A DNA stretch of 64,000 bases, from positions 160,001-224,000 of the forward strand of contig CAWDOD010000009.1 in assembly GCA_963803805.1 (NCBI GenBank), read 5' to 3'. Below the pieces are notes generated by a model, which worked only from the letters and a program-made list of their open reading frames with translations, did not search any database and was not told the DNA's origin. Source of the DNA: an uncultured cyanobacterium (lineage in GTDB: Bacteria > Cyanobacteriota > Cyanobacteriia > Cyanobacteriales > CAWCAG01). Shown here piece after piece: positions 16,069 to 19,331 of the stretch. A program made the position numbers and the translations under genes. Each line of letters opens with the position of its first letter. Position 1 is the stretch's first letter.

Positions 16069-16968
16069 TCAAGCTTCTTTGTTACCAAAAACCATTTGCA
16101 AAATCATTTTTTGTCCTCCTTCTTGATGATATTTATCCCCCCAATCTCTTAAAATTTCATCAAGTTCAGCTTTCGCTGCTTCAATATTCTCTGGAGGAAT
16201 ATCTAATGTTTCCAACAATCTCATTGTGGGTGACTTCTTCTTAGCCCAGTCGCGCATCATGCGGAAATATCGGGCTGTGTCCTCTACCATAGTATAGGTA
16301 CGCTCTTCCTGGTCTTCTGGGGAATAAGTAGCTCTAGTAAGAGCATAAAAAGGTAAGCCTCCAGGATGATCGACGCGCATTACTGTACCAGAATAAATCA
16401 AACGCCTTTTGATATGTTCTTGCAATGCTTCGCTTAAACTCATTCTCCGCTTTTCAGGAAGATCTTCTTGGGAACGAGTGTGAAGGAATTCGATTAACTC
16501 AGTAAATTCAAAAGAGCTAATCAATTGGGCATCAGGTAATTTGTCTGGTAACTTTTTCTCAATTTGCCTTTTTTCTTCCGGTAATAAACTTCTTCCTTGA
16601 ACACGAGGACTCCCTGGCAGCCAGGGATATTTTTCTAACCAAACATAGGGAAATTGAATTAAGTAACGAGGTTCTTGAGAACCTAGCATTTTTAACAGTT
16701 TTCCTTCTGTTAAAGCTTGCCTTACTTCAGCGACAATAGCCTTAACTCTTTTCGGTTCGATGTGGTGCAGGTGGCCAGTCATGCGAATATTTTCGCCCTG
16801 CTCTAAATAAGTTATATAAATTGCGCACTTGGCAGCAGTTGCTGCTGCGTCTAAAAAGGCTCCATGACGATGCCCTCCTGTTCTCATGGCACTAAATGCC
16901 AAGTAGAACATAATTTGATCCATTGCACTGGGGCTGAGAGTTTGAATTAACTCAAGGTCTGTTTTCAT
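16069..16968 (-). CDS. hetR: HetR transcriptional regulator
   Basis: 299 aa, colinear with Anabaena PCC 7120 HetR as I recall it: PSAMDQIM...[20 protein letters not shown]...[14 protein letters not shown]...[16 protein letters not shown]...MILQMVFG. Confidence 0.98.
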
Positions 16969-17139
16969 CTTACGGAATTTTTACGTTCGGGCGGGACAAC
17001 TAGTGTAGTAATAAATTGCTCTGCTTTACCAATGGTTGATCCAAGATGCTTGAACCAACTCCCAATAACTCCAAGCACCCCGATGAAAAAATATATACCA
17101 TTATATTTTATAATTGCTTAACTTGGGAAATTCTTCAAC

Positions 17140-17170
17140 AAAAGAAAAAGCTCTGCCGTTTTGGACAGAG
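17140..17170 (-). terminator. Probable terminator/attenuator between patX and hetR
   Basis: Minus strand CTCTGTCC-AAAAC-GGCAGAG followed by CTTTTTCTTTT. Confidence 0.5.
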
Positions 17171-17216
17171 ACTTGATTGAGATTGTTGTTAAGAAAATAA
17201 TTTCTTCTTAAGGAAC

Positions 17217-17432
17217 TTAGCCTTGAAAAGGGCCAGTATCAAAACGACCACTTCCTCTTTCAGCTAGGATAGTTCCTTCTTCTAAGTTGAAGTGAGAAGA
17301 TTGAACTTGAGTGAGATTAGCGTAGGCAAAGCCCGCCGCAGGTATTGCAGAGTCACTTTCTATTGTTCCTAACTGGAAAGATAGGGAAAGAGATAGTATA
17401 CTCAACAACACAACAGCAATAATTTTTTTCAT
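17217..17432 (-). CDS. patX: PatX-type RGSGR signalling peptide precursor (71 aa)
   Basis: MKKIIAVVLLSILSLSLSF signal-peptide-like start; ERGSGR encoded at 17244-17261; GGAG RBS at 17440-17443; lies between an FAD oxidoreductase gene and hetR. Confidence 0.88.
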   Translation of the reverse strand: MKKIIAVVLLSILSLSLSFQLGTIESDSAIPAAGFAYANLTQVQSSHFNLEEGTILAERGSGRFDTGPFQG

Positions 17433-17464
17433 GACATAGCTCCACATCAGGGTTTCTATATTCC

Positions 17465-17493
17465 TGATACGGAGGCAATCCCTTATGTCCGGA
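17465..17493 (-). promoter_or_regulatory. DIF1-type promoter of patX (TCCGGA-N17-GTA)
   Basis: TCCGGA at 17488-17493, 17-nt spacer CATAAGGGATTGCCTCC, then GTATCA, about 30 nt before the ATG. Confidence 0.75.
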
Positions 17494-17576
17494 TAAGCTT
17501 TCTTCAGAGCAAAATAGGTAGGGATAAGTTAGAAATTTTTGGTACGGAAAACCAAACTGGTGAGTATGTTGACTCC

Positions 17577-19331
17577 CTAATCTGGAATTATTTGCTCGGC
17601 TGCGAACCAGTTGCCACTGGGGTTGTACTGCCCTGAAATAGAAATAGATTTGTGGTGAGGATAGTTTGATAGTTGTTGGTGAATTTCTGGATGTAGAGTA
17701 ACTATCCTCAAATTTTGTCTGAGTATAACCTGATGCTTGTTAAGTTCTAGACTATACTCCCCTCGATTTTGTTTCTGGAAAATTCCGGAAACTATCTCTG
17801 TGTCAGAGTTAAATATGGTTTTACTCTCTTTGCAAGGGCTGTTGCCATCTTGAGGATAGGCTTCAGGATGTTCTAGGTAGTAACGCTGCCATTGTAGCCA
17901 TTCTGGGTGTTCCGGGGGTAAGTTAAATAAGGGAATAATTGCTGCTGGGGCTATGGTATCTGTCAATAAAGCTTCTTGCAGTTTGCTTACAGATAACTGC
18001 CAAGGCTGACATTGAGATTTCACACACAAAGCTGCTGCCATACCTGTAGCTTGCCCTATATTCATAACTAGAGGTTGTAAGCGGGTAGAACCATTAGCAA
18101 TGTGAGAAACGGAGATATTCTTTTCACACACCAATAAACCTTCTGTCAAAACAGGTACAAGGGCATAGTAAGGGATTGTAAAAGGCGTACCAGTCCATCT
18201 CCCCCCCCATATTAAGGATTTAGGTTGAACGGGAAAATCTCTACCAGGATAGTGATGATCGTTGGCATAGTTGCCTACAGCAATAGAACTAACTGTACCT
18301 TCATTTGTTTTAGATAAAGGTGCAACAAAACCTCCTTCGATAGGTAAAATACTCTTTTCTGTGACTGTTTCTAGCCCCAGTAAGCGCCGACTTTCTCGGT
18401 AATAGGGATGGAGTGCTAAAGCACCATTACCAAGGGAGTGAGGGAAAATGTCTTTAGCTAAGCCGTAGTGTTTACCAAGATGAGTTTGAATGTAACGGGC
18501 AAAACTGAGACTATGGTTAATAGCTTCTTGGTGAAACTCTCTTTTCGCTATATCCGATTCGATGAGGCGTTGTAAATTTTCCCCGTAGTCGTTGCCACAT
18601 TGCGGCCAGTTAAGCATAAAAAGACCACCAGGTAAGCGACCATAGTTAAGAAATTCTTCTTCTCCATAACCTTGCCAAGCCCCTTCAAAAGAGTTTTTTT
18701 CCTCAGCTTTAATTTCTGGTGCTTCCTTACCTTCCCCATAATCTTGCAGCATAACTACCCAAGTTGGGGATTGAATGGGATAGCGTTTGGTTAATTCATT
18801 TTCAGAAGTAGGGGCGCTTGGTTCATTAAAATCCTTTTGTAGTTCCCAACCCCAACGTGATGGTACATCTGCTAAAGCGAGAATATCCCCTAATTCTGTG
18901 CCATCTAGGGTTATTTGGGCTTTAATAAGAAAGTCAGCAAAGCGAACCCCAGTAACACGGTTTTCTTTGCACAATACTTCCAAGGGAACCTGCCCCTTAA
19001 TCCAGTGTAAGTTAGGTAATGCTTCTACCCAATCAGCAAAAATTTTAGACCCCACTTGAGGATGATAGCTAAACATACTTACCCAGCTATTAGCTAATCC
19101 TCCTTTTTGCCTAATTTCTAATTCCCTTAAAAATGCTCCCCACAAACCAGTTTGCCAAGGTACTAATTCATTACCATCAGGGGCGCAGACTCCGGCGGAA
19201 GTTAGCATTCCTCCTAACCAAAGAAATTCGCTAACAAGGGTAGTTTTGACTCCACAACGGGCAGCTTGAATAGCCGCAGCAGTTCCCCCTGTACCTCCTC
19301 CTACCACTAAAATATCTGTTGTGAGCTTCAT
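17577..19331 (-). CDS. FAD-dependent oxidoreductase
   Basis: DILVVGGGTGGTAAAIQAAR, GGMLTSAGV, YYRESRRL, EKNISVSHIANGSTRLQP. Confidence 0.88.
   Translation of the reverse strand: MKLTTDILVVGGGTGGTAAAIQAARCGVKTTLVSEFLWLGGMLTSAGVCAPDGNELVPWQTGLWGAFLRELEIRQKGGLANSWVSMFSYHPQVGSKIFADWVEALPNLHWIKGQVPLEVLCKENRVTGVRFADFLIKAQITLDGTELGDILALADVPSRWGWELQKDFNEPSAPTSENELTKRYPIQSPTWVVMLQDYGEGKEAPEIKAEEKNSFEGAWQGYGEEEFLNYGRLPGGLFMLNWPQCGNDYGENLQRLIESDIAKREFHQEAINHSLSFARYIQTHLGKHYGLAKDIFPHSLGNGALALHPYYRESRRLLGLETVTEKSILPIEGGFVAPLSKTNEGTVSSIAVGNYANDHHYPGRDFPVQPKSLIWGGRWTGTPFTIPYYALVPVLTEGLLVCEKNISVSHIANGSTRLQPLVMNIGQATGMAAALCVKSQCQPWQLSVSKLQEALLTDTIAPAAIIPLFNLPPEHPEWLQWQRYYLEHPEAYPQDGNSPCKESKTIFNSDTEIVSGIFQKQNRGEYSLELNKHQVILRQNLRIVTLHPEIHQQLSNYPHHKSISISGQYNPSGNWFAAEQIIPD

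Follow-up and report, generated by a model that had tools for sequence, protein, structure and literature searches.

HetR and the inhibitory hexapeptide that it binds are a textbook pair, for which a solved structure exists (4ynl), and PatX, a family of precursors of such peptides, is said to have been defined by Elhai and Khudyakov in 2018. We describe here a patX-type open reading frame (ORF) that stands directly upstream of hetR in a 64-kb stretch of DNA from an uncultured cyanobacterium (contig CAWDOD010000009.1, positions 160,001 to 224,000). This whole stretch is what we analyzed and is called the window below; the genes of the module are all on its minus strand. PatX has a Sec-type signal sequence and co-occurs with hetR across filamentous cyanobacteria; in Nostoc it is exported and cut by the peptidase PatP before and after HRGTGR, giving a hexapeptide whose binding to HetR was measured at 88 nM (PMC12756182). 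Non-heterocystous strains are already known to have patX and hetR with a DIF1 promoter, from work on Leptolyngbya sp. BL0902 (2024, citing Elhai and Khudyakov 2018; PMC11298460), in which hetZ-patU lies elsewhere in the genome. The role of hetR and patX in filaments without heterocysts is stated in the literature as an open question (PMC11298460, PMC12669612). The DIF1 motif (T-35 C C G G A-30) is now described as the -35 element of HetZ, an unusual sigma factor of the extracytoplasmic function (ECF) type. The sigma-HetZ consensus places TCCGGA and a -10 element TGnA (positions -13 to -10) on either side of a 16-17 bp spacer, and tolerates the partial replacement of T-13 by C or G and of G-32 by other bases (PMC13342950, PNAS 2026). 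Of the two genes hetZ and hetR, it is hetZ on which patX expression depends more directly (PMC7377430).

Our analysis of the window locus indicates that it is likely the ancestral patX-hetR lateral-inhibition module of filamentous cyanobacteria, retained in a Spirulinaceae-like lineage that most likely has no heterocysts. By its sequence, the small ORF (17432..17217, minus strand; 71 amino acids (aa) and a stop codon at 17219..17217) encodes an RGSGR precursor of the PatX type. It stands immediately before a genuine hetR (16968..16069, minus strand; 299 aa, full length), with 248 nt between the two. For comparison we took 80 hetR loci (L numbers below), the best 80 of 180 genome-contig matches ranked by HetR similarity; 58 of the 80 are labelled Nostocales, and four have less than 700 nt of upstream sequence. 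An ORF encoding RG[ST]GR lies directly upstream of hetR on the same strand in 12 of the 80, which we call the syntenic loci. Within 1.5 kb upstream of hetR such an ORF is found in none of the 58 Nostocales-labelled loci, compared with 12 of the 22 others.

Two start codons are available to the small ORF, ATG 17432 (71 aa) and ATG 17447 (76 aa). The shorter is the better reading, because a GGAG Shine-Dalgarno-like site (17443..17440, minus strand) stands 7 nt before ATG 17432 and the equivalent Met is the start in both database orthologues. The N-terminus consists of MKK and about 16 hydrophobic residues (about 17432..17379), with Kyte-Doolittle means of 1.8 to 3.4 over the 9-residue segments that begin at residues 1-10, which bears out the signal-peptide-like character given to it in the initial annotation; it is homologous to the N-terminus of the syntenic PatX ORFs. 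ERGSGR is present as a single copy at residues 58-63 (17261..17244) and is followed by an 8-residue C-terminal tail. Six-frame translation of the whole window yields RG[ST]GR once, in this ORF; mononucleotide shuffles of the window contain 0.15 copies on average, and 27 of 200 contain at least one. The protein search returned two orthologues, P0002 (85% identity) and P0003 (70%), which both preserve the N-terminus, ILAERGSGRF and the terminal GPFQG; the tail pattern F-D/N-T/P-GPFQG is seen in all three proteins, that of the window included. Since orthologues at these identities conserve the two ends, the small ORF is more than a chance frame. The syntenic ORF of ESFC-1 is 42% identical to it over 66 aa (BLASTP, E 2e-5). 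Loss of the motif from syntenic ORFs, named at the outset as a finding that would tell against the proposal, is not what we see: RGSGR is invariant in the three orthologues and is present in the 12 syntenic ORFs, the remaining sequence of which has diverged almost completely. This divergence around a kept RGSGR argues for selection on the HetR-binding motif. In six of the loci (L002, L004, L006, L008, L013 and L024) PatX has two to four tandem RGSGR units. A hydrophobic residue comes after each unit, and in most cases D, N, T, S or Q comes next; this arrangement suggests one precursor yielding several inhibitor peptides.

The downstream protein has the features of an intact HetR. It scores 553.8 bits against the NCBIfam equivalog NF009718 (cutoff 489), contains the Pfam domains Peptidase_S48 (PF03574, 256.7 bits) and HetR_C hood (PF18460, 142.5 bits), and its residues 1-298 align gap-free to the solved HetR structures 3qod and 4hri. 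The residues of Anabaena HetR listed as contacts are R62, H69, E71, K73, R74 and K76 for DNA and R223, E253, E254, D256, D270 and D278 for the peptide, E253, D270 and D278 being indispensable (PMC4649674). All six DNA contacts are kept in the window protein (Anabaena numbering), as are S152 and S179. Five of the six peptide contacts (R223, E253, D256, D270 and D278) are kept as well, and these are invariant in all 81 HetR sequences, window included.

The region upstream of patX provides the second half of the evidence. TCCGGA (17493..17488, minus strand) begins 61 nt before ATG 17432 and is followed, after 17 nt, by GTA (17470..17468), as first noted in the initial annotation. Read as a sigma-HetZ-type (DIF1) promoter of patX (17493..17468, minus strand), the site has a -35 TCCGGA, a 16-bp spacer and a -10 CGTA (17471..17468); from this match transcription, expected about 35 nt after the T of TCCGGA, would start at about 17458. 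The site fits the sigma-HetZ consensus, and its cognate factor in the host would presumably be sigma-HetZ. TCCGGA on its own is not rare in the window, with 10 sites against 6.2 expected and 10 or more in 8 of 100 shuffles. The composite TCCGGA-N16/17-NGNA has a single site on both strands of the whole window, the patX promoter. Across the syntenic loci, TCC[GT]GA-N17-CG[TA]A is located 60-69 nt before the ATG in 11 of 12. We compared nine sequences upstream of patX in one alignment (the window, Lusitaniella, a Spirulinaceae metagenome-assembled genome (MAG), ESFC-1, Kastovskya, two Leptolyngbya/Pseudanabaena-type MAGs, J06648_16 and Microcoleus FACHB-1515). TCC-GA, G-12 and T-11 are present in 9/9 and A-10 in 8/9; the -35 element is TCCTGA in seven and TCCGGA in the window and Lusitaniella. 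A DIF1 motif within about 69 nt upstream is reportedly part of the PatX criterion of Elhai and Khudyakov, and the 61 nt of the window patX fall inside this distance. They are also said to have found that an NtcA-type site precedes the patX DIF1 motif in the heterocyst-forming lineage; GTA-N8-TAC is absent from both strands of 16900..17700. The initial annotation had taken the site for a HetR-dependent DIF1 promoter. The DIF1-type element stands, and with the 11 syntenic loci it is better founded than before; the dependence on HetR is only indirect, because DIF1 is the -35 element of sigma-HetZ and patX depends more directly on hetZ.

The gap between the two genes bears on whether they are transcribed together. 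A terminator-like hairpin (17170..17151, minus strand; 7 bp stem, 6 nt loop) is found 47 nt after the patX stop and is followed by CTTTTTCTTT, the whole element spanning 17170..17141. Its fold is of -11.6 kcal/mol (z -2.59), a value equalled or bettered in 4 of 200 shuffles, and L004, L008 and L014 have a hairpin and T-run in the same position. Beyond it lies a sigma-70-like promoter candidate for hetR (17129..17100, minus strand; TTCCCA-N18-TATAAT, 10/12 consensus matches); sigma-70-like sites across the region as a whole are no commoner than in shuffles (6 vs 7.3), and the TATAAT-like box is aligned in L004, L008 and L014. The core GGGTG of a conserved block (17080..17076, minus strand; TTAGGGTGC in relatives) is invariant in all six aligned hetR-upstream regions (window, L002, L004, L008, L014 and L045). 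Hairpin, -10-like box and GGGTG block are in register in the intergenic regions of the relatives. Because the hairpin and the conserved sigma-70-like promoter separate patX from hetR, the two genes are probably two transcription units. The -10-like box and GGGTG occur upstream of hetR across distant non-heterocystous lineages.

The competing view, that patX and hetR form one operon in which the DIF1 promoter drives activator and inhibitor together, follows what was proposed for Leptolyngbya BL0902, where the authors inferred co-transcription from a predicted DIF1 promoter (PMC11298460). The common strand, the 248-nt gap and the modest energy of the hairpin, at which some read-through is plausible, are compatible with it. 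The hairpin and T-run recurring after patX in the window and three relatives, and the 10/12 promoter with its invariant GGGTG placed between hairpin and hetR, are not what an operon calls for, and we regard this view as possible yet doubtful. The search for a second DIF1-type promoter serving hetR (up to one mismatch in TCCGGA, with NGNA at 16-17 bp) gave one extra site in 17700..16900, TCAGGA-N17-TGGA at 17467..17441, which overlaps the patX start region and was taken as spurious; the patX-hetR gap itself has no DIF1-type site. The HetR-recognition core GGG-N5-CCC has 0 sites in the whole window and 0 in the intergenic regions of eight relatives.

A working scheme for the lateral-inhibition module can be drawn from these elements. 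HetR, by its sequence an intact DNA-binding regulator, would owe most of its transcription to the sigma-70-like promoter that its gene has beyond the patX terminator, as the sequence and conservation of the two elements suggest. In Anabaena, hetZ is activated by HetR. The loop would then run from HetR to hetZ to patX, with PatX inhibiting HetR, and patX would be transcribed from TCCGGA-N16-CGTA near 17458, presumably by sigma-HetZ. By analogy with the Nostoc experiments, the 71-aa PatX would be exported by Sec through its hydrophobic N-terminus, and a PatP-like peptidase would cut on both sides of ERGSGR, removing the 8-residue tail and the N-terminal flank. Structural data from Anabaena place R223 close to the C-terminal carboxylate of the peptide and show the N-terminal amino group held by E254 and D256 (PMC4649674). 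Since HetR holds both termini, residues flanking the hexapeptide on either side should interfere with binding; the need for processing around RGSGR, raised in the initial annotation from the tail, is thus to be expected on both sides of the motif (PMC4649674, PMC12756182). The freed hexapeptide would re-enter cells, bind the hood domain and release HetR from DNA, a step for which the conserved contact residues speak. As output in a non-heterocystous filament the literature suggests the placement of filament breakage (necridia).

Several observations weigh against this scheme. The sixth peptide contact, E254, is T in the window HetR, and in Anabaena the E254A change weakened peptide binding from 12 to 91 nM (PMC4649674). 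With the other five contacts in place, the window HetR could in principle still bind the peptide. The promoter has C at -13 in place of the consensus T, and C is only partly active according to PMC13342950. In the genome set, the six loci nearest to the window by HetR (L001, L003, L005, L009, L012 and L021) lack an RG[ST]GR ORF on both strands for 5 kb around hetR. The NCBIfam PatX model NF047413 (cutoff 30 bits) gives no match to the window ORF even at E up to 10. The signal-like N-terminus is known from hydropathy and homology, neither of which predicts a cleavage site. No hetZ was recognized among the 70 ORFs scanned in the window (pooled from partly overlapping sets of 7, 43 and 20), and patP was not searched for. 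Finally, in Leptolyngbya BL0902, the only non-heterocystous strain tested genetically, RNA sequencing of patX, hetR and double deletions suggested that PatX effects are largely HetR-independent (PMC11298460).

Some of these points need qualification. T254 occurs in 5 of the 81 HetR sequences (window, L002, L004, L008 and L068, the last a further MAG), all of the Spirulinales-type clade. Just ahead of RGSGR, the T254 loci with an adjacent PatX have E or A, and the sampled E254 lineages have H, W, Y, N, S or A; the two positions may co-vary. Adjacency of patX to hetR is not universal in the HetR clade of the window; the six loci without it are Spirulina spp. and two MAGs, in which patX is either elsewhere or lost, and in L003, L005 and L009 hetR is abutted by a different oxidoreductase-like ORF of 293 aa. 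As to the PatX model, a match to NF047413 is an annotation criterion outside the original PatX definition. Of five syntenic PatX ORFs tested, L014 passes (38 bits) and L002 (22.2), L013 (20.2), L008 (13.4) and L045 (13.1) fail; the model misses most of the non-Nostocales PatX ORFs tested, and surveys relying on it would undercount patX outside Nostocales. The window PatX has no Pfam or NCBIfam match, the PatS model matches only P0003 (E 0.15), and the orthologue in the related Spirulinaceae MAG is annotated as hypothetical. The idea of a self-contained circuit, put forward in the initial annotation, does not hold, because in the Anabaena and Nostoc work a DIF1 promoter requires sigma-HetZ, and PatX has to be exported by Sec and processed by PatP. 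By analogy with Anabaena, the circuit would need hetZ and also patU, a PatP-type peptidase, Sec export and peptide re-uptake.

The BL0902 result opens the question of whether the PatX signal is received here by something other than HetR, with the place of patX beside hetR an inherited one and RGSGR not the main control of HetR. There, the double mutant resembled the patX mutant and not the hetR mutant in gene groups with opposite patX and hetR effects, from which the authors took PatX to be largely independent (PMC11298460). The replacement of E254 by T would suit such a target, as would the conserved 8-residue tail, which the hexapeptide model leaves unexplained. We consider it unlikely: five of six peptide contacts are kept, among them the indispensable E253, D270 and D278, and RGSGR persists in the three orthologues and in 12 syntenic ORFs that have otherwise diverged almost fully.

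A further proposal concerns how the module might be wired. An inverted repeat, ATCAGG (17468..17463) and CCTGAT (17451..17446) with N11 between them on the minus strand, straddles the predicted patX start and could be an operator. TCAGG...CCTGA is kept, at variable spacing, in five of the nine aligned regions (window, L002, L004, L008 and L014) and not in L006, L013, L024 and L045; CCTGA is also part of the TCCTGA -35 variant of the relatives. In a two-promoter device built on this repeat, hetR would be on a housekeeping-type promoter and a terminator-insulated patX would be under sigma-HetZ and a factor binding ATCAGG-N11-CCTGAT. The circuit would pattern a non-heterocyst fate along the filament (such as necridia or a nitrogen-fixing subset of cells), and the GPFQG tail would direct processing unlike that of Nostoc PatX. 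Taken as a whole, this proposal is speculative and quite improbable.

The host is very probably non-heterocystous. The HetR tree was built on 33 of the 81 rows, and all 48 rows left out are labelled Nostocales. The window HetR shares an 11-row clade with rows from Spirulina spp., Lusitaniella, ESFC-1 and Spirulinaceae, supported at 99 by the Shimodaira-Hasegawa-like approximate likelihood-ratio test (SH-aLRT), and it is outside a separate 11-row Nostocales clade (SH-aLRT 99). In the large protein set, the nearest HetR (95%) and the nearest PatX (85%) are both labelled as from a Spirulinaceae MAG, and the best HetR match among the genome contigs is 80% identical. Because of the HetR tree and the nearest named relatives, the window is placed with non-heterocystous Spirulinales, in keeping with the host supposed in the initial annotation. 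A contig labelled uncultured Acetobacteraceae bacterium (L029) has a Nostoc-type hetR that groups inside the Nostoc clade; it is probably mis-binned. That the host is instead a heterocyst former, and the module its ordinary patterning circuit, might be read from the NCBI model name ("heterocyst differentiation master regulator HetR") and from the HetR of Calothrix and Richelia, which is 77% identical to that of the window and nearly as close as the Spirulinales rows. This is very unlikely given the position outside the Nostocales clade, the Spirulinaceae labels of the nearest named relatives, a patX adjoining hetR in 0 of 58 Nostocales-labelled loci and the lack of an upstream NtcA-type site; no heterocyst envelope or nif genes were recognized among the 70 ORFs scanned, though 64 kb makes this a weak argument. 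The least probable reading by far, a chance frame or decaying relic with coincidental motifs, could draw on the missing Pfam and NCBIfam matches and on the unenriched TCCGGA and the data already contradict it, with two orthologues (85% and 70% identical) that belong to the same length class and have conserved ends, homology to the ESFC-1 ORF, the sole RG[ST]GR in six frames of 64 kb and a promoter conserved in register.

Upstream of patX, after a gap of 144 nt and on the common strand, is a gene for a flavin adenine dinucleotide (FAD)-dependent oxidoreductase (19331..17577, minus strand; 584 aa; Pfam PF12831 FAD_oxidored, 311.8 bits, E 1.2e-92), a protein for which none of the NCBIfam models scored above cutoff. 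The arrangement in the initial annotation, with this gene upstream of a 71-aa ORF bearing ERGSGR near its C-terminus and hetR downstream, was correct in all positions; the strand, which it omitted, is minus. The order oxidoreductase-patX-hetR recurs in three of the 12 syntenic loci (L013, L014 and L024), whose oxidoreductase homologues directly upstream of patX have 57-61% identity to that of the window. No published description of this order was found in a literature search covering sources other than Elhai and Khudyakov 2018. An Rfam scan of the window gave three matches, none of them inside the patX-hetR module.

Other genes of the window deserve brief mention. A pentapeptide-repeat protein (23349-24149, plus strand), 6.4 kb from hetR, matches the Alr5209-family model at 183.7 bits (cutoff 125) and reaches 180 bits on the HetL model, below its cutoff of 260; HetL protects HetR from RGSGR peptides in Nostoc (PMC12756182). 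A Guanidine-I riboswitch (RF00442, 77.8 bits; 57812..57692, minus strand) is followed on the same strand by a homologue of the Synechocystis 'agmatinase 2' structure 7esr/7oi1, then by hypA (56408..56061) and hypB (55994..55311). We take these to be a guanidine hydrolase with its nickel chaperones. The hydrolase gene extends over two frames, with reference residues 2-109 in 57691..57248 and residues 106-382 in 57360..56437. The frame shifts in a C run near 57290-57300, either through a sequencing error or as a real frameshift. The minus strand at 57863-64000 holds a very large ORF of at least 1778 aa, still open where the window ends, with a CHAT protease domain at its C-terminus.

Comparison with the known systems shows where the window locus belongs. 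With the PatX of Nostoc/Anabaena PCC 7120, a 77-aa HRGTGR precursor, it shares the small size, the hydrophobic Sec-type N-terminus, RG(S/T)GR near the C-terminus with residues after it, and the DIF1/sigma-HetZ promoter (PMC12756182, PMC13342950). It differs in its motif, the PatS-type hexapeptide ERGSGR and not HRGTGR, in standing directly upstream of hetR, where the 58 Nostocales-labelled loci have no RG[ST]GR ORF within 1.5 kb, in the absence of an NtcA-type site upstream, and in being missed by the NCBIfam PatX model. PatS is not known to have a signal peptide and HetN is reductase-like; the window ORF is neither of the two. What they share with it is the ligand: in Anabaena, PatS (17 aa) and HetN are both sources of the ERGSGR/RGSGR that the hood domain of HetR binds (PMC4649674, PMC12756182). 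The patS promoter defined by structure with sigma-HetZ has the same -35 TCCGGA, 16-bp spacer, G-12, T-11 and A-10, and T at -13 where the window has C; by this resemblance sigma-HetZ would be the cognate factor of the window promoter (PMC13342950).

The closest relatives in sequence are the PatX proteins of ESFC-1 (L008), the Spirulinaceae MAG (L004) and Lusitaniella (L002), which have in common with the window the N-terminus LLSILS...IES, the patX-hetR order, the promoter architecture and HetR T254. They contain two to four RGSGR copies, whereas the window protein and its two orthologues have one copy and the GPFQG tail; L002 has TCCGGA as its -35 element, L004 and L008 have TCCTGA, and none of the three has the FAD oxidoreductase as neighbor. 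Leptolyngbya sp. BL0902 (Front Microbiol 2024) is likewise non-heterocystous, with patX immediately upstream of hetR and a predicted DIF1 promoter. Compared by description only, it differs in that co-transcription was inferred there, while the window has a terminator-like hairpin and a separate conserved promoter between the genes (PMC11298460). The window locus is thus a well-preserved further example of the described patX-hetR system and not a new kind of system. It adds little that is new and offers a clean minimal example, in which ERGSGR occurs once, the -35 element is the canonical TCCGGA, and a clear terminator-like hairpin after patX is followed by a candidate promoter of hetR's own.

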